Shown here piece by piece: positions 19,118 through 26,347 of a stretch of DNA of 64,000 nt. Source of the DNA: Escherichia phage pEC-N1203-2Af.1; the sequence record OQ540978.1; one strand, written 5' to 3'. The notes beneath the pieces are model-generated. The model was not told the DNA's origin. It did no database searches and worked only from the letters and a program-made list of their open reading frames with translations. Positions within the stretch are counted from its first letter, which is position 1; each line of letters starts with the position of its first letter. The position numbers and the translations under genes were made by a program.

Positions 19118-19336
19118 TTAAGGTAGTATCTTTCTCAGAGCGTTAGATTCAGCATCAGGACAAATAACAACTAGGTTATTTTGAATTGTTCTCTGCTTGC
19201 ATTGAGAGCTAAGCTTCTCTACTGGAGCAGGGACAGTTACTAATGGATGAACTGCGCTTACAGGAACTGCGGTTGACACCACAACGCCTGCACCTAAACA
19301 GATTAAACCATATGCAGCCTGTTTCATCATTTTCAT
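19118..19336 (-). CDS. Small signal-anchored protein, putative lysis accessory (spanin/holin-like)
   Basis: ORF 72 aa; hydrophobic N-terminus MKMMKQAAYGLICLGAGVVVSTA; directly upstream of endolysin. Confidence 0.35.
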   Translation of the reverse strand: MKMMKQAAYGLICLGAGVVVSTAVPVSAVHPLVTVPAPVEKLSSQCKQRTIQNNLVVICPDAESNALRKILP

Positions 19337-19392
19337 TTTAGTATCTCCTATATATTAACCTCTTGGGATATATTAGTTTCATTACTTACTAA

Positions 19393-19425
19393 GGGTACTT
19401 ACTACTAAAGCCCCCGAAGGGGCTT
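19393..19425 (-). terminator. Hairpin with UUCG tetraloop (weak terminator/attenuator)
   Basis: Minus-strand AAGCCCC-UUCG-GGGGCUU followed by an A/U-rich tract. Confidence 0.35.
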
Positions 19426-19495
19426 ATATTACTTCTCTGATAATTTTGTTTCTAAAGCCTCGACCTTATAGCAAGACTGAAGGTTATTTGCCAGA

Positions 19496-19744
19496 TTAGT
19501 CGGGAAGCGGGATGTTGAAAAGTTCTTCAAACTTTCCCGCGTCACTCAAAGGTTTTGCAGCAATGTAATAATTCTGCCACTCGACCAGTTTATCCTTATA
19601 GTCATCCATGAAACTTGACATTGCAGTACATTCTTGTATTTTAGTTACACACACTGAAAGTCTCATTTCAGCTGTTTTAACGTAGTCAATATTTGTATTA
19701 ATCATATTACTCCCTCCAAGTAGATTGAATGACGCCGGTTGCAC
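19496..19744 (-). CDS. Hypothetical protein
   Basis: ORF 82 aa downstream of tail fibre gene; no motif. Confidence 0.35.
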   Translation of the reverse strand: MQPASFNLLGGSNMINTNIDYVKTAEMRLSVCVTKIQECTAMSSFMDDYKDKLVEWQNYYIAAKPLSDAGKFEELFNIPLPD

Positions 19745-21584
19745 TTAAAAGTACCCACACCACAATAGTAGATGAGGACCTATTGTGGATAAACCCAGAG
19801 CACCGACTTAGGCCAAGACCCTCGCACTTAACATCCCAATCCGCAGAGTTACCAGCCTCACCAATAACTGATAAACTAGGATAGTTAGTGAAAGGTGATG
19901 CCCCTTCATCCACAAAATTCCAATTCCAATTTGTAGCAGAGTTAGGGGGGCAGGTTACAGGATAACGTCGTGATATAATCTGCCAACCGCGAGTATTGTT
20001 CTTAATAATGTTAAGTGACTGACCACCTGTTCCGGAATTGGTAACCTGATAGGCATCCCTAATAGGTCTATCATAGGATGATGATGTGCCTGTGCGGTTA
20101 TCAGTGACACGAATAATCGGGATAATTTCTCCATTTTCCGTATAGCGCGTCATAATACTTGAGCCTACACGTAGTGCACCGTTGACTCTATACTCACTGG
20201 AAACTTCCCCGCCGTAAATACTCACATCAGATGGAGGTACAGTGGTGCCACTATTAATAACAGACCAAGAAGTATTGGCAGCAGTAAATCCACCAGAGGC
20301 GCGGATAATCCAGATGCCACCTGCGTGGTTCGGAGCAAGGGTATTACCCAGCTTGCCGTAGGTGTCATTAGATGATGTTGCGCTAAACAATATCTGGTCG
20401 CCCTTCTCCGTACCTCCAACGGTTAATGAGCTACCTGAATCCATCACTCCCAGCTTAAAGGCACCACTGGCATCCGACGCATCCGCATTCGCACCGTGAG
20501 TATAAAAAGTCCCGGTGATATTCGGTGCAGATTGGGGGGCAACGACCCCCGCAACCCCATCAACAGTCCAATCCGTCGACTTTCCACTTGAGCCTGACAA
20601 GAAGATTCGACTCAGAGAATCGGTCTGAACCCCGTTCAAATCAGGAACGCGGAAGTTCGTCGACCCATCCCCGGTCGAGTATTTAGCCCTGTGAAGGAAC
20701 TTAACCCCGACAGCGTTCAGCCAGCCCGTCTCGTCAATAGACATCAACAACCCAGCATCTACAGCCGCCCACAAGTCAGGGTAATCGGTACGAGTCAATA
20801 GTTGACCATCAGCAGCGACATACCCAGCCGGCAACTTGACTCTTGAGCCCTGCCACCACTCCACCGCACCGATAAAGTTATTCATCACCCCACTCATGGA
20901 GGCACCGCCACCACTGCCGCCACTATTTCGGAGTTGTCTCACTGTCACAGCATCGTAGTCCCCAACACCATCTGGTACAGTAACAGGTTGGGTAAAGGTT
21001 ACTTTCTGGGTGAGTTGTTTGATATCGGAGTTGATACCGGTACGGTTTACACCAATAGTCCGACCTTTGGAATCTTTGACATAAGAACCAATTGCAGCAA
21101 AAGGCAAATCCTCAATCTCTGGACGATATCGTTTAGAATACACAGGGTATTTAGTTTCTACTCCGGAGTCGTTCTGGTCTACAACCTGAAGACGACCAGC
21201 AGAGTGAATCTCTACCCCTTGAACAGAAGAAGCATAGCTACCAATCTTGATTGCGTTGTCAGTAGTAACCTTCATCATATCAACTGACTCTACACCATTA
21301 GCCCCAGCAGAACGGAAAGGGATGTTATTATCTACAAAAGGGTCTGCTTTGAACAAAGCACCTTCCATGATAGGTTGAATTGAATCTAATACATAATCTT
21401 TAGATGCACCTTCTGTTTTAGTTTGATATACATCAGCCGCTTCTGTTTTCTGCAAGTATTTATCAGTTAAATTTACAGCTCCAGCAACACCATCTACAGT
21501 GGAAACGCCAACAACAGCTGCATCTCTGGAAACAACAACATATGGTTGAAGTATACCAGATTTGGGCATTAAATCTCTAGACAT
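19707..21584 (-). CDS. Tail fibre protein with phage tail-collar domain
   Basis: ORF 625 aa; ADGQLLTRTDYPDLW...KYSTGDGSTNFRVPDLNGV matches tail-collar / T4 gp12-like motif; shares long segments with 21626-24937. Confidence 0.65.
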   Translation of the reverse strand: MSRDLMPKSGILQPYVVVSRDAAVVGVSTVDGVAGAVNLTDKYLQKTEAADVYQTKTEGASKDYVLDSIQPIMEGALFKADPFVDNNIPFRSAGANGVESVDMMKVTTDNAIKIGSYASSVQGVEIHSAGRLQVVDQNDSGVETKYPVYSKRYRPEIEDLPFAAIGSYVKDSKGRTIGVNRTGINSDIKQLTQKVTFTQPVTVPDGVGDYDAVTVRQLRNSGGSGGGASMSGVMNNFIGAVEWWQGSRVKLPAGYVAADGQLLTRTDYPDLWAAVDAGLLMSIDETGWLNAVGVKFLHRAKYSTGDGSTNFRVPDLNGVQTDSLSRIFLSGSSGKSTDWTVDGVAGVVAPQSAPNITGTFYTHGANADASDASGAFKLGVMDSGSSLTVGGTEKGDQILFSATSSNDTYGKLGNTLAPNHAGGIWIIRASGGFTAANTSWSVINSGTTVPPSDVSIYGGEVSSEYRVNGALRVGSSIMTRYTENGEIIPIIRVTDNRTGTSSSYDRPIRDAYQVTNSGTGGQSLNIIKNNTRGWQIISRRYPVTCPPNSATNWNWNFVDEGASPFTNYPSLSVIGEAGNSADWDVKCEGLGLSRCSGFIHNRSSSTIVVWVLLSATGVIQSTWRE

Positions 21585-21589
21585 TTAAA

Positions 21590-21615
21590 TCTCCTTAAAG
21601 CTCCCCGAAGGGAGC
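21590..21615 (-). terminator. Hairpin with UUCG tetraloop immediately upstream of the RBS of gene 19707-21584
   Basis: Minus-strand GCUCCC-UUCG-GGGAGC followed by UUUAAGGAG. Confidence 0.3.
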
Positions 21616-21625
21616 ATTATTTATA

Positions 21626-24600
21626 TTACCGTGCTCTTAATTCATTTACTTCTTTCTCAAGAGCTTCTATTCTATCTAACAAAACTAAGAGGACTTCGTG
21701 ATGCAGTGCAGCAGCTACCCCATAGGTGTCTACAGACTTAACATCTTTCACAATAGTTCCATCTTTCAATTCAGTGTCTGAATATTGGAGAGCCTTAACA
21801 GCGTCAGGGAAAACCTTCTCCACATCTTGCGCAAGGAAGCCAATACCATTAGGTTTAGGAAGTTTATCAAGACGTTCCCAAGTAACCCCTTTGATAGCCT
21901 TAAGTTTTTCAATGGGATTCTCAATACGCTTGATGTTAGTTTTAAGTCTTTCGTCTGAAGTGCTTGACCAGTTCCCTGCTTGAGCGGTTCCGTCCGGCAT
22001 GAACTTAAAATCAGCTGCTACACCTTGACCGTTGTTTACCGCAATCTGAGCATGAATCAGGTCTGTACCAGTACCACGAACGCCACCAAGAGTGTAACTA
22101 CCATCATACCAATCTCCAGAGAAATAAGAAACATATCCAGGAGTGGTTTGATTGAAGTTAATCATCCTCATACCGTTCCTCTCACTGGCTGCTACACCAA
22201 CAGAGGCGTTAGCTCTGACCAGCAAGTCAGTGGGTCTTAGGTATGCATCAATTGTTAGTGCCCCATCAGGTCTTTCTGTGCCAAGCTGAGATACTGCATT
22301 AGGAAGAACTAACGTTCCAGCATTATTGAATTTCCACTCCTGAGACCCGTTTAAGATTTTAGCTCCAGATGTTCCGGAGGCTCCGTCAATTTGCCCATAA
22401 GCAGATAAGGTTGCTGAGTAAGTTAGGTCGGTCCCTATTTTATACTCAGAGCGGACTAAACCACCAGACACCGTAAACCCAGTAGAAGGTTTGGTTGCAT
22501 CGGAGTTAATAACAGACCAAGATGTATTAGCAGCAGTAAATCCACCATTAGCACGAATTACCCAGACACCGGTGAAGCTGTTGGTGCGGACTTCGGTCGT
22601 GTTGTCGCGCCCATAAACAGAACTGGAAATGGAAGCATCAAGCGTTACAGATGCTGCTGCCGTGTTGAGGCCAGAATCCGCTGAAACGTTGGGGCGCCTT
22701 TTATCCTGCGCCCCCGCTTGCATAGCACCAGTGGCCGAGCCAATCACACCATAGTTGAAATCGTTCACCAGAGTGACAAATTCGCCTACGATGTTTGGCG
22801 CGGCGCTGCGGAATATTTTACCGTTATTGCTCGATACACCACCGTCACCGCGAGCATACAGACCAGAGATAGACCCACTTTGGACACCATTTCGGTCCGG
22901 GACACGGAAAGTAGTAGAACCATCCCCCAGTGAATATTTACCCCTTTGTTGGGGGTCAGCCAGCCAAGCAGCATCTGTGATAGGGGATAATGCTTGAGCA
23001 TAAGCCCACAGATCTGGATATGCCGTACGAGATAATAATTGACCGTCAGAAGTTACGTCATTAGAGTGAATAAGAGCACGACTGTCTACTAAACGGAAAT
23101 CGCCAATATTGAAATTAGAGACACCGTTCAAGCTAGCCCCACCACCGCCACCCCCTTGGTTTCTTAACTGACGTAAGGTAACAGCATCCAGATCACTTAC
23201 AGCATCTCCACCCAGTCGAGTAGGGCCAACCAAACCCTCAAGCTTAGTGATATCCCCGTTAACCCCAGCAGAGGTTATAGCAGCAGCCCCTATTTCAGCA
23301 GGAGTTGGTTTATTAGCCTCAGTGTAAAACTTCTTCTCTCCCGAATCGTTTACATAAACAGGGACATCAGAAGATAAGATTTTAGCTTTAACTGTATCAC
23401 TACCGAGAAGAACGGAACCATCAGTTGCAACAGTTGCTATATTAATAGATGTTCCAGAACTCGCGGTACCCGTTAACACAATACCAGAGCTGAGATTTAG
23501 ATGGCCTGTCATCTTACCACCAGTAGTAGGAAGGGCACCTACATCTGATGCTGTGACTGTAACATTACCTGTTGCTTCATTAGGGATCTTACCGTTAACA
23601 GCAACAACATAAGGAACCTGAGAAAGAGGTCTTCCATCATACTGAGTGTCATTTGTTTTACTTGGAGATCTAATTGCCTCACCACCTGTCCAATCGGGAA
23701 GTCGAATATTGATAAAATTTGTTGAATCCGCATCAGTAACCCCATCAGCCAATTTGCCCCAAGAGAAATACTGTTTAGCTCCAGCTTGCCACGCAGTTTC
23801 AGAAACAACAGGAAGTTGACCACTGACAAGAGATGGACCTAAATCAGCAGCGTTATCTTTAGACACTAAACGACCATCAGCTGGAAGAACACCCGGATAT
23901 GACACCTGTTTGGCTGGGTCATAAGGGAACATTAACATCTCACCCAAATACAAAGATGGGTTACCGGTAGGTATTGTAATATCAATATTACCAGTAGAAT
24001 CTGGAACTCGAGAGTTTACTGTAACAATCCTATTTTCTGTTTTAGAAAGAGTTAGTGTTTTATCAGCAGCTACAGTGTAGAAGACGTATTTATAATCCTC
24101 CCAAACTAGGATGTTTTCACCAACCTTTCGGTTAACTGCATCAGCATCCGCAGCAGCTTTGGTTCTGTAGGTTTTAACATACCCATCCACTTTACCATCA
24201 ACTTGAGAGATACTATAAGAGGCTACGTTAACTACATTATTAAGACCTACAGTAGTTTTGTCTAGGACCAGATTAACTTCGCCATCAGCAGGTGTTCCAC
24301 CGTTGACAGAAACAGAACGAACAGATGGGATTAAGTTAGCGATGTTCTCTAGAGTAGTTTTGTGGACAGTGTTGTCATCTTTGTCAACATAGAAACCTAA
24401 GTCACCTAACTCTGGAACACCGGTAGGTGCTGTATCTAAATCCTTAACAGAACCATCCTTTCCGGGATCACCTTCTGGAATACCTAAAGAGATTACACCA
24501 GTGGTCGGATTAAAAGAACCAGTAGCTTGACTCCCCGGAGGAAGGGTAGTTACATCAACAGACATTCCCAACAGAACATCAAGCTGTTTCTGGACTTCAA

Positions 24601-24937
24601 TGAGCTTCTGATTAATGAGAGCAACAGCGTTATTAGCATCAGAGACTGCTGCGTTAGTTTGAGCAACCAAGCTCATCAGACGAGCATCTTGATCTATAAA
24701 ATCCTGCTTAAGATCTTCAATGTCTTGCTTCATCAGAACACCTTGTTGATACAGACGTTCTACTTCAGCGATCAAGTCATCAATTGTACCAAACTTAGAT
24801 TCCGCTAGCAGTGCCCAATATTTAGAATCAGCTGCATATTCTGCTGCTTGCTTGTAAGCTCCGATAGAGCCTTCAGTAGCACCAAACTGCCCAACATTAT
24901 TCACTGCATCAGGTGCTTGGTTATTATAAACGATCAT
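21626..24937 (-). CDS. Tail fibre/tailspike with tail-collar domain and C-terminal S74-type intramolecular chaperone
   Basis: ORF 1103 aa; SDGQLLSRTAYPDLW...GDGSTTFRVPDRNGV collar motif; C-terminal SDERLKTNIKRIENPIEKL...GFLAQDVEKVFPDAV typical of autoproteolytic chaperone domain. Confidence 0.7.
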   Translation of the reverse strand: MIVYNNQAPDAVNNVGQFGATEGSIGAYKQAAEYAADSKYWALLAESKFGTIDDLIAEVERLYQQGVLMKQDIEDLKQDFIDQDARLMSLVAQTNAAVSDANNAVALINQKLIEVQKQLDVLLGMSVDVTTLPPGSQATGSFNPTTGVISLGIPEGDPGKDGSVKDLDTAPTGVPELGDLGFYVDKDDNTVHKTTLENIANLIPSVRSVSVNGGTPADGEVNLVLDKTTVGLNNVVNVASYSISQVDGKVDGYVKTYRTKAAADADAVNRKVGENILVWEDYKYVFYTVAADKTLTLSKTENRIVTVNSRVPDSTGNIDITIPTGNPSLYLGEMLMFPYDPAKQVSYPGVLPADGRLVSKDNAADLGPSLVSGQLPVVSETAWQAGAKQYFSWGKLADGVTDADSTNFINIRLPDWTGGEAIRSPSKTNDTQYDGRPLSQVPYVVAVNGKIPNEATGNVTVTASDVGALPTTGGKMTGHLNLSSGIVLTGTASSGTSINIATVATDGSVLLGSDTVKAKILSSDVPVYVNDSGEKKFYTEANKPTPAEIGAAAITSAGVNGDITKLEGLVGPTRLGGDAVSDLDAVTLRQLRNQGGGGGGASLNGVSNFNIGDFRLVDSRALIHSNDVTSDGQLLSRTAYPDLWAYAQALSPITDAAWLADPQQRGKYSLGDGSTTFRVPDRNGVQSGSISGLYARGDGGVSSNNGKIFRSAAPNIVGEFVTLVNDFNYGVIGSATGAMQAGAQDKRRPNVSADSGLNTAAASVTLDASISSSVYGRDNTTEVRTNSFTGVWVIRANGGFTAANTSWSVINSDATKPSTGFTVSGGLVRSEYKIGTDLTYSATLSAYGQIDGASGTSGAKILNGSQEWKFNNAGTLVLPNAVSQLGTERPDGALTIDAYLRPTDLLVRANASVGVAASERNGMRMINFNQTTPGYVSYFSGDWYDGSYTLGGVRGTGTDLIHAQIAVNNGQGVAADFKFMPDGTAQAGNWSSTSDERLKTNIKRIENPIEKLKAIKGVTWERLDKLPKPNGIGFLAQDVEKVFPDAVKALQYSDTELKDGTIVKDVKSVDTYGVAAALHHEVLLVLLDRIEALEKEVNELRAR

Positions 24938-24946
24938 ATTATCTCC

Positions 24947-25699
24947 TTATACACGAGAAGTACGAATACCATAAATATCAGGCAGGCTGCTCTGAAGTCG
25001 AGTCATGTTATTCGGAATTGCGATAGGTGAACCTGAGTACTCTTGCTTCTTATTCTGCTCTACCATTTCATCAAGGATAGCTTTTCCTAATGCTGACCAT
25101 TTCTGAACTCCATTATCATCTTGAACAAACAAGCAAGCATGACGTAGAGTGAAATACAGAAGAAGTTCTGGTGCAATAGTAAGGATAGCACTGGTATCTG
25201 TATCTTCATGGAACTCCGGTGGGTCTGCATAATAACTAAGAATGACTGAGTTTTCTGCTGGAATCAAAGGACTTCCATCATCAGGATAAACAGGAGTATC
25301 TGCTTCAATGCTAGGGTAGAAAATGAAACGACTACCGAAACGAGCAAAGTTAACAGGTTGGTTATTCCAGTGAGATGGGTTAATTGTTCCATGCTGTCTA
25401 CGATAGCTAATCTCTTCAGGAGATGTTACTTGGAAGATTGTACCATCTTTGGCTCTCATCATCCATTGAGCTTCTAAGTAATCAGGAGGAATGTAAGCTA
25501 CTCCATCTTTAATATCTAAATACACTTCTTTTTCCAGAGGAGGAATACGTAAGTTACGATAAATCTCTTTCTCTGCAAAGTTAATAAAGTTTGGAATTTG
25601 ATTAACAAATTCGTCATCGTCCCTATCTGCCCAGAGGGCCACGGCCTTCTTTAGCCACCCATAGGTATTGATGGGGTATTGAACATCTGGCATCGCCAT
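24947..25699 (-). CDS. Virion protein (possible head-tail adaptor / tail tubular protein)
   Basis: ORF 250 aa between capsid and fibre genes; TAATGTATA motif upstream. Confidence 0.4.
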   Translation of the reverse strand: MAMPDVQYPINTYGWLKKAVALWADRDDDEFVNQIPNFINFAEKEIYRNLRIPPLEKEVYLDIKDGVAYIPPDYLEAQWMMRAKDGTIFQVTSPEEISYRRQHGTINPSHWNNQPVNFARFGSRFIFYPSIEADTPVYPDDGSPLIPAENSVILSYYADPPEFHEDTDTSAILTIAPELLLYFTLRHACLFVQDDNGVQKWSALGKAILDEMVEQNKKQEYSGSPIAIPNNMTRLQSSLPDIYGIRTSRV

Positions 25700-25798: not shown

Positions 25799-26347
25799 TT
25801 AGGCTTTGGGGGTAACACCTGTGAATTCACAAGTGGCTGTTACAAGAGGTTTAGTCTTGTGTGTAGCTGCAACAGAGACTGTACCAGTAGCAGCATCAGC
25901 AAGAGTCAAAAGACCAGCTGCACTGACAGTACCTGCTTCAGTAGGGGTTACAACAAAATCATAATCACTACCAGCAGAATTGGTTACAGTAAACATTGTA
26001 GAGAAGGCAGTAGTAGAACCACCGACTTTACCAGCAATAGGACCACGACTTACAATTGTAGGTTCAGGGTCAGCAATAGCTGAGATCGTAGATGTACCGG
26101 ATTTACCACCTTTAGTAGCTTTCACTGTAATCGGGGTTTCTTGCGACGCACTCGGTGCAGTGTACAGTCCAGAAACAGAAATAGCCCCACCACCCTCAAC
26201 GGACCAAACAAATCCAGTTGTTGATGTGGAGCTATCACTCATTTGTGCTGTAGCTGTAAACTGCTGAGTAGCCCCCGTCGGAAGGCTTGCAACCGACGAA
26301 GGACTAACAGTTATGGTATCTACTGTTACGCCGCCACCGCCTTTCCC
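25799..26347 (-). CDS. Ig-like (BIG2-type) capsid extension/decoration; probably the -1 frameshift C-terminal extension of the major capsid protein
   Basis: ORF 25799-26242 is open upstream in the same frame through the capsid stop to the slippery site; product reads GKGGGGVTVDTITVSPSSVASLPTGATQQFTATAQMSDSST..., Thr/Ser/Gly/Val-rich Ig-like pattern. Confidence 0.5.
   Translation of the reverse strand, partial: GKGGGGVTVDTITVSPSSVASLPTGATQQFTATAQMSDSSTSTTGFVWSVEGGGAISVSGLYTAPSASQETPITVKATKGGKSGTSTISAIADPEPTIVSRGPIAGKVGGSTTAFSTMFTVTNSAGSDYDFVVTPTEAGTVSAAGLLTLADAATGTVSVAATHKTKPLVTATCEFTGVTPKA

Follow-up and report, generated by a model that had tools for sequence, protein, structure and literature searches.

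A long tail fibre of Escherichia phage pEC-N1203-2Af.1, probably branched, combines a scaffold subunit bearing its own chaperone with a branch subunit whose tip appears to have been exchanged

Escherichia phage pEC-N1203-2Af.1 (OQ540978.1), of the species Kuravirus pECN12032Af1 in the subfamily Gordonclarkvirinae, carries two tandem genes on the minus strand of the 64,000-nucleotide stretch of DNA analysed here (the window): gene A (21626..24937), an open reading frame (ORF) of 1103 aa, and gene B (19707..21584), an ORF of 625 aa. Analysis of the window suggests that A and B are probably the scaffold and side-branch subunits, of a kind already known, that build a single branched tail fibre by which an E. 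coli podophage binds its receptors. A is the proximal or scaffold subunit of the long tail fibre, orthologous to SU10 gp12, phiEco32 gp14 and DT57C LtfA; B is the distal or branch subunit, orthologous to SU10 gp13, phiEco32 gp15 and DT57C LtfB, and has no intramolecular chaperone (IMC). An earlier note on this DNA had recognized both minus-strand ORFs as tail fibre genes, and orthology to the SU10 and DT57C proteins bears this out; its further proposals of tandem duplication and of two parallel fibres are taken up below.

The surrounding gene block has the canonical Kuravirus structural order of major capsid protein, Ig-domain protein, SU10-type adaptor, A, B, holin, endolysin, short tail fibre (Gp10_C) and nozzle, with the adaptor gene (24947..25699; PF24175) directly upstream of A. 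Residues 1-235 of A (24233..24937, minus strand) constitute an adaptor-binding N-terminus and coiled-coil shaft 93% identical to those of SU10 and MN05 A; the SU10 structure resolves gp12 only over its first 90 residues, which sit on the adaptor (PMC9509320). A thus shares with SU10 gp12 both the adaptor-binding N-terminus and the synteny with the adaptor gene. Over residues 1-500, A matches chain 7z47_D of the SU10 long tail fibre with an E-value of 5e-251, A1-468 is 82-83% identical to the A proteins of SU10 and phiEco32, and A236-898 matches residues 227-889 of the 1076-aa DT57C LtfA chain 8hqz_d with an E-value of 6e-128. B1-480 is 88.5% identical to B of MN05 (MN05_B) and, over B1-465, 62-63% identical to B of SU10 and phiEco32, and B covers positions 1-499 of the phrog_6921 profile.

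The two subunits also carry the paired regions of the LtfA/LtfB system, in which LtfA 223-471 resembles phiEco32 gp14 239-508 and the first 45 aa of LtfB resemble phiEco32 gp15 (PMC4728585). A contains the region homologous to LtfA 223-471 and gp14 239-508 (A246-474 is 45% identical to DT571/2 LtfA 230-455, E 2e-52), and B begins with the ~45-aa N-terminus of LtfB and gp15 (B1-45 is 76% identical to DT571/2 LtfB 1-45, E 2e-18). Residues 236-496 of A (23450..24232, minus strand), conserved in all gp12, gp14 and LtfA proteins and 72-74% identical to all Kuravirus A proteins, would provide the docking platform for B, whose first 100 residues (21285..21584, minus strand) form a conserved N-terminal attachment domain, 75-80% identical in all Kuravirus B proteins regardless of how the A protein ends. 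Within the conserved middle of A there is an extra collar-like motif, GEMLMFPYD...PGVLPADGR...IRLPDWTGG (residues ~330-420; ~23677..23950, minus strand), weakly similar to B254-318 and LtfA 322-400, which could be a knob on which B docks, or else another conserved domain for binding.

The remainder of A is laid out like an ordinary distal fibre. A T-shaped distal fibre, comprising a Gp12-like first receptor-binding domain (RBD1), a T5-like second one (RBD2) and an IMC, has been described for Gordonclarkvirinae, Wifcevirus and some Tequintavirus phages (PMC11990801, 2025), and A497-1099 is collinear with SU10 gp13 100-722 (37% identity, E 3e-90). On this evidence A appears to be a Kuravirus scaffold (residues 1-496) fused to a complete T-shaped module of RBD1, RBD2 and IMC (hereafter the T-module): a Gp12-like (collar) RBD1 at A575-835 (22433..23215, minus strand; local G+C fraction 0.53), which is the module common with B; a distal tip at A836-993 (21959..22432, minus strand), a T5-like RBD2 by homology to the T-shaped fibres of Wifcevirus; and an S74 intramolecular chaperone at A994-1103 (21629..21958, minus strand). 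A836-1103 is 70% identical to residues 510-776 of gp87 of the Wifcevirus FEC19, its RBD2 and IMC. The Peptidase_S74 family (PF13884) is found in A994-1048 at 54.6-57 bits against a cut-off of 22 (E 1.3e-14 to 2.4e-15), and the catalytic motif T993-S994-D-E-R-L-K999 retains the Ser-Lys dyad, with Lys at +5 and the predicted scissile bond just before Ser. In T5 pb1 the Thr1263-Ser1264 bond is cleaved, Ser1264 is activated by Lys1269, and the uncleaved protein does not block infection, so that cleavage unmasks the binding site (PMC4690869). By inference, mature A would end at T993 and the 110-aa chaperone would be released. The Phage_tail_C_2 family (PF25670), present in MN05 and Bas93 A and in most A clusters, was not found in A by the Pfam search. 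The long architecture of A with S74 has parallels: phages LAMP and PAS59 and ~30 metagenomic proteins have it, and LtfA is built the same way.

B differs from A at its distal end. The Gp12-like (collar) RBD1 of B spans residues 203-467 (20184..20978, minus strand; Pfam Collar; G+C 0.50-0.53), and residues 468-625 (19710..20183, minus strand) form a beta-strand neck followed by a C-terminal foot (~510-625), modelled as a lectin fold, in place of RBD2 and IMC. Searches of B and of B460-625 for Peptidase_S74 give no hit, even with the E-value limit relaxed to 10. The two distal parts, A836-1103 and B468-625, are unrelated to each other; RBD2 and IMC occur together in one polypeptide in A, whereas the tip of B is unrelated to them. 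The earlier note was therefore right that the distal parts differ and that a domain of the S74 self-cleaving chaperone type ends the longer fibre only.

B departs from MN05_B-like sequence from about residue 480, and its last 161 aa match a single record among 50,697 phage genomes, that of AidaStucki (Bas93), at 79% identity. A word-indexed protein search with the C-terminal fragment of B returned no match, a sensitivity artefact given that an exhaustive HMMER search of 1.84 billion representatives later retrieved 16 relatives of the tip domain, each time at the very C-terminal end of fibres that otherwise differ, one of them with a T7-fibre N-terminal domain. Scans of the last 166 aa of B against PHROG, Pfam and NCBIfam gave nothing usable. 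AlphaFold run on B440-625 as a single sequence reached a predicted local distance difference test score of 41, which is useless, but a 13-sequence alignment gave a confident model, similar in fold to the R-pyocin foot structures 6cxb, 6cu2 and 6cl6; no sequence homology between the tip and R-pyocin feet is detectable. The tip of B is thus modelled as a rare domain of R-pyocin-like lectin fold that appears to have replaced an ancestral RBD2 and chaperone by recombination.

The DNA retains a scar of that exchange. Downstream of B, a non-coding remnant of 36 nt (19432..19467, minus strand) reads VEALETKLSEK*, the last 12 codons of an ancestral B chaperone, and the C-terminus of MN05_B reads ...VEVLEAKLSEK. 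The 138 nt at 19330..19467, which reach the holin start, share 95.7% identity with the B end, intergenic region and holin start of MN05, and 95% with those of phiEco32. Because this remnant of chaperone codons persists downstream, ancestral B had a normal IMC. A cassette of ~680 nt (~19468 to 20144), comprising the foot domain and a small ORF described next, appears from these alignments to have replaced RBD2 and nearly all of the chaperone. In Bas93, which has no IMC remnant, ~325 extra nt that hold two very short annotated ORFs (52 and 30 aa) lie between the homologue of the small ORF and the holin gene (L005, 2589..3028) and are absent from the window.

The small ORF, orf69 (19496..19705, minus strand; 69 aa), is the likely folding helper of B, and the earlier note had missed it. 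Its ATG lies 1 nt after the TAA of B, with the Shine-Dalgarno sequence GGAGGGAG inside the last codons of B, so that it is translationally coupled to B; the automated ORF list extends it to a spurious GTG at 19744 (82 aa). It is absent from SU10, phiEco32, MN05 and YF01, in which the gap between B and the holin gene is 92-93 nt, versus 370 nt here. Homologues with 39-90% identity directly follow a fibre gene with the same tip in eight of nine contexts belonging to three virion types: in Bas93 (86%), in two lambda-like siphovirus contigs (53%, after a 458-aa fibre), on four short contigs, and, as a 95-aa homologue (39%, E 1.5e-17), after a 474-aa fibre whose tip is just ~34% identical. The homologues overlap the fibre stop codon or start 1 nt from it. 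R-pyocin fibres with a similar foot need an adjacent downstream chaperone for soluble expression (PMC6363177); because of this requirement and of its linkage to the tip, orf69 is probably a trans-acting chaperone or accessory of the B tip.

The most serious alternative, although still an unlikely one, is that orf69 does not act as a folding chaperone: it could be an accessory or adhesin built stoichiometrically into the tip (like T4 gp38), a cap present only transiently, or a hitch-hiking small gene such as a lysis regulator. Two results that favour it also weigh against the chaperone assignment: orf69 has no hit at E < 0.05 in Pfam, PHROG or NCBIfam and matches no known chaperone family, and a T7-like phage (L017) has the same tip without orf69, a six-frame hidden Markov model search being negative and a holin gene following the fibre gene. 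Hence orf69 is not universally required by fibres with this tip. In Kuraviruses orf69 also adjoins the holin gene, and transient chaperone caps are described for Alteromonas phages (PMC10579305). Yet the position immediately after the fibre stop (overlap or 1 nt) is kept in the siphovirus-like contigs, with no lysis genes called among the neighbours, and orf69 co-diverges with the tip; a hitch-hiking lysis gene would not stay linked to it across three phage backgrounds. A scan of IMG/VR for orf69 yielded no relative. A resemblance of the C-terminal W..YY...KPL...FNIPxP of orf69 to Caudo_TAP was a visual impression that gained no profile support and was dropped as evidence. Orf69 is about half the size of P2-type assembly proteins. 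We tentatively suggest, at somewhat short of an even chance, that the orf69 family (69-95 aa) is an unrecognized class of small proteins that serve in trans as chaperone or cap for the rare tip modelled with a pyocin-like lectin fold and for that tip only, the two genes forming a portable cassette able to replace the RBD2-IMC end of a T-shaped fibre. If so, the branched fibre would carry up to four different glycan-binding sites and use two chaperone strategies, in cis on A and in trans for B. On the metagenomic contig L014 (2..3890) a fibre with the same tip and orf73 are followed ~650 nt later by a 737-aa S74-bearing fibre, another tandem pair of a trans-helper fibre and a cis-chaperone fibre.

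In the proposed fibre, a trimer of A would dock on the tail adaptor through its N-terminus, and a trimer of B would attach through its N-terminal ~45-100 residues to the conserved middle of A (~236-496). A would present RBD1 and RBD2, which the S74 chaperone would fold in cis before cleaving itself off at T993/S994; B would present a second, divergent RBD1 and the lectin-like foot, for which orf69 is the probable folding helper. The number of different glycan-binding sites on such a fibre is probably three or four, and their most likely ligands are O-antigen or lipopolysaccharide (LPS). Branching has precedents: phiEco32 gp14/gp15 and DT57C LtfA/LtfB have been proposed as branched fibres, with LtfB attached through LtfA 223-471 (PMC4728585; PMC10713586). 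Because the attachment domain of B keeps its 75-80% conservation with either type of A, the one ending in PF25670 and the one ending in a T-module, the contact would not lie at the C-terminus of A, and hence the fibre would be branched.

A strictly linear fibre, as drawn for SU10, would instead have B continue the distal end of A, with the T-module of A buried, vestigial or structural and B alone determining the receptor. The long tail fibre of SU10 is a trimer of proximal gp12 and a trimer of distal gp13, described as proximal and distal segments with one elbow and with receptor-binding domains at the distal ends (PMC9509320), and the authors of the PAS59 report, which contains no experimental test of that phage's two fibre proteins, assign receptor binding to the 'long tail fiber tip'. 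This arrangement is nevertheless improbable here: the T-module and IMC of A are intact with the catalytic T-S...K motif kept, the T-module is 81-93% conserved in relatives and 70% identical to a functional-type Wifcevirus fibre tip, docking of B cannot depend on a C-terminus of A that varies in type while the attachment domain does not, and an IMC-processed tip leaves no obvious end-on attachment site. Several points do weigh against the branched two-subunit fibre preferred here and against parts of its description. Branching in phiEco32 was reported as a personal communication, and the evidence in DT57C is genetic with weak density; SU10 micrographs show a one-elbow fibre of linear proximal and distal segments (PMC9509320); support for the A-B contact is indirect, here and in the cited papers; RBD1 of A alone fails the Pfam Collar threshold (21-22 bits, 21.7 for A575-835, versus a cut-off of 24); and the pyocin-foot match comes from a monomer model of a trimeric domain at ~10% sequence identity.

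As to receptors, dual or multiple specificity was shown genetically for DT57C LtfA/LtfB (PMC4728585), and by analogy multi-receptor binding by the fibre of pEC-N1203-2Af.1, which the earlier note suggested as a possible dual specificity, is plausible. O-antigen or other LPS glycans are the most likely targets, by analogy with three published results: all BASEL Gordonclarkvirinae depended on O-antigen, EP335 gp13 binds O157 and O26 (PMC8217332), and LPS core is the ligand of R-pyocin feet.

The similarity between A and B that underlay the earlier note is real. The BLASTP alignment between A497-834 and B100-467 has 375 columns, 39% of them identical (E 2e-45), and the Smith-Waterman score of A against B is 524, compared with 55.6 +/- 8.2 for 200 shuffles (z = 57); this alignment places the common blocks far beyond chance and upholds the note's claim of a homologous collar-type module in the two proteins. 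The longest exact peptide in common is the 15-mer GGFTAANTSWSVINS; other blocks are YPDLWA and the near-identical RQLRN..GGGAS and GDGST.FRVPD.NGVQ. Pfam Collar is above threshold in B (34-36 bits versus a cut-off of 24; 35.9 for B203-467), and the corresponding region of A is counted as a Gp12-like (collar, SSF88874/PF07484) RBD1 on its homology to B and its 55-57% identity to the RBD1s of the phiEco32 and SU10 distal fibres. The common block is RBD1 plus the shaft before it. The RBD1-coding stretches 20200..21099 and 22600..22899 have a G+C fraction of 0.50-0.53, against 0.37-0.44 in flanking fibre sequence and ~0.42 in the window, which would fit either a mobile module foreign in composition or coding that is rich in Gly/Ala.

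Common descent of the module does not make the genes a local duplicate. That a tandem duplication in this phage produced two independent parallel fibres, each attaching itself and each with its own receptor, is very improbable, despite the significant similarity over ~340-370 aa, the tandem placement on the same strand and the differing distal parts. The N-termini of A and B are unrelated, the adaptor-binding N-terminus (resolved in SU10) is found in A only, and the N-terminus of B matches LtfB, which depends on LtfA for attachment. No significant similarity is detected between A and B orthologues within the pairs of four other Kuraviruses (MN05, SU10, YF01 and phiEco32). RBD1 of A is 59-60% identical to those of PAS59 A and B, 55-57% to those of Bas93 B, phiEco32 gp15, SU10 gp13 and DT571/2 LtfB, and 52-53% to those of FEC19 and DT571/2 LtfA, but only 43% to that of the neighbouring B (A575-835 versus B203-467); it is thus nearer to the RBD1s of six of the seven other phages compared than to RBD1 of B, which is itself 91% identical to that of MN05_B, and duplication is thereby largely refuted. 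At the DNA level just one 61-nt stretch reaches 85% identity, so that the similarity between A and B is old; recent gene conversion between them was rejected on the same evidence.

Metagenomic proteins 93% and 82% identical to A pair with ordinary S74-bearing B proteins of 715 and 703 aa, and doubled modules are also found in PAS59 and DT571/2. From the matrix of RBD1 identities and the pairing of A relatives with ordinary B proteins, the RBD1s of A and B appear to be independently acquired alleles of a horizontally mobile receptor-binding domain, with no duplication in this genome. The near-identical blocks quoted in the earlier note do occur in both proteins, but they appear to be motifs conserved throughout the family and not marks of duplication. 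The suggested pair of parallel fibres gives way to non-equivalent proximal (scaffold) and distal (branch) subunits of one fibre.

The C-terminus of B is no truncation, because B stops where the 625-aa B of Bas93 stops despite 22% nucleotide divergence, its last 160 codons show, in comparison with Bas93, a ratio of nonsynonymous to synonymous substitution rates (dN/dS) of 0.20 at a dS of 0.77, a sign of purifying selection, and its tip belongs to a conserved C-terminal family; a frameshift or pseudogene was rejected on the same grounds. The idea that B is a degenerate, truncated fibre minus its chaperone, with its C-terminus and the small ORF as functionless decaying leftovers, is the least credible of all and is already contradicted by these data, by the conservation of the tip family at fibre C-termini in unrelated phages, by its confident model as a known fibre-tip fold and by the conservation of orf69 at 39-90% in continued linkage, even though a remark on Bas93 in the BASEL paper, the missing S74 domain of B and the non-coding IMC remnant point towards it.

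Among known systems, the L-shaped LtfA-LtfB fibres of DT57C and DT571/2 (Tequintavirus; Golomidova 2016, Ayala 2023) are like A in having the LtfA 223-471-like region, RBD1, distal tip and S74, and in DT571/2 both subunits likewise contain homologous RBD1 modules (LtfA versus LtfB, 55% over 428 aa). In contrast, the first 235 aa of A are of the Kuravirus adaptor-binding type rather than the T5 LtfC-collar-binding type, and in DT57C LtfA and LtfB both end in S74, whereas B ends in the modelled lectin-fold tip and is accompanied by a separate small ORF. SU10 gp12/gp13 and phiEco32 gp14/gp15 belong to the same genus and share the gene order adaptor-A-B-holin-endolysin-short fibre-nozzle, but their A ends in PF25670 and is unrelated to their B, a full T-shaped fibre with S74; in pEC-N1203-2Af.1 the T-module with S74 is on A, and B has a different tip. 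The T-shaped dual-RBD fibres of Humolli et al. 2025 from the BASEL collection (Gordonclarkvirinae Bas87 Gp10, Wifcevirus Bas99 Gp114, Tequintavirus Bas32 Gp24) are collinear with A497-1103 and share RBD1 with B; unlike the described Gordonclarkvirinae, which have the T-module on the distal protein only, pEC-N1203-2Af.1 has it as an extension of the proximal scaffold, and of the module only RBD1 is left on the distal protein.

PAS59 (RBP1/RBP2), LAMP and ~30 metagenomic Kuravirus-like A proteins (1067-1104 aa) share the long A with S74, at 55-93% identity over the full length, and the A and B of PAS59 also have a module in common (44% over 541 aa); however, in PAS59, LAMP and the A relatives P0005 and P0008, B is a canonical S74-bearing fibre of 703-715 aa. 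AidaStucki (Bas93) is the only phage record of the 50,697 with the same 625-aa B (tip 79%, orf69 homologue 86%), but its A is of the ordinary 852-aa PF25670 type and its B has a different RBD1 allele. The R1/R2 pyocin foot with its downstream chaperone (PA0620/PA0621) differs in that the foot has ~10% sequence identity to the tip of B and orf69 matches no chaperone family.

Other features of the locus touch the fibre genes less directly. A GC-rich hairpin, AAGCCCCTTCGGGGGCTT, followed by T lies after the fibre operon (19408..19425, minus strand) and is conserved in MN05, phiEco32, SU10 and Bas93, and a similar GC-rich tetraloop hairpin, GCTCCCTTCGGGGAGC on the coding strand, lies directly after A, between A and B (21600..21615); both may be terminators or RNA-stabilizing elements. 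Scans for promoters and terminators stayed at background level. Between the capsid and adaptor genes, a 147-aa protein (25799..26242, minus strand) varies in length among relatives, being 132 aa in SU10 and 170 aa in MN05, phiEco32 and Bas93; these relatives annotate it as an Ig-domain protein. It adds a further variable module to the surface.

A branched gp14/gp15 or LtfA/LtfB fibre assembled from T-shaped modules is known already from DT57C, phiEco32, SU10 and BASEL phages; the modest, incremental addition here is a tip-plus-helper cassette of B not previously described, together with a clear recombination scar. Reading the Bas93-type fibre as 'truncated' is corrected. Kuraviruses, which are common and resist restriction, are coliphages under consideration for therapy, and this long fibre sets the range of hosts that they infect. 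The locus shows receptor-binding modules moving between scaffold and branch subunits, with reassortment of A and B alleles, and an intramolecular chaperone swapped for a tip and a separate helper gene with the scar still visible. For engineers, it offers a defined cassette boundary (~19468 to 20144) and a candidate helper to carry along with a transplanted tip.

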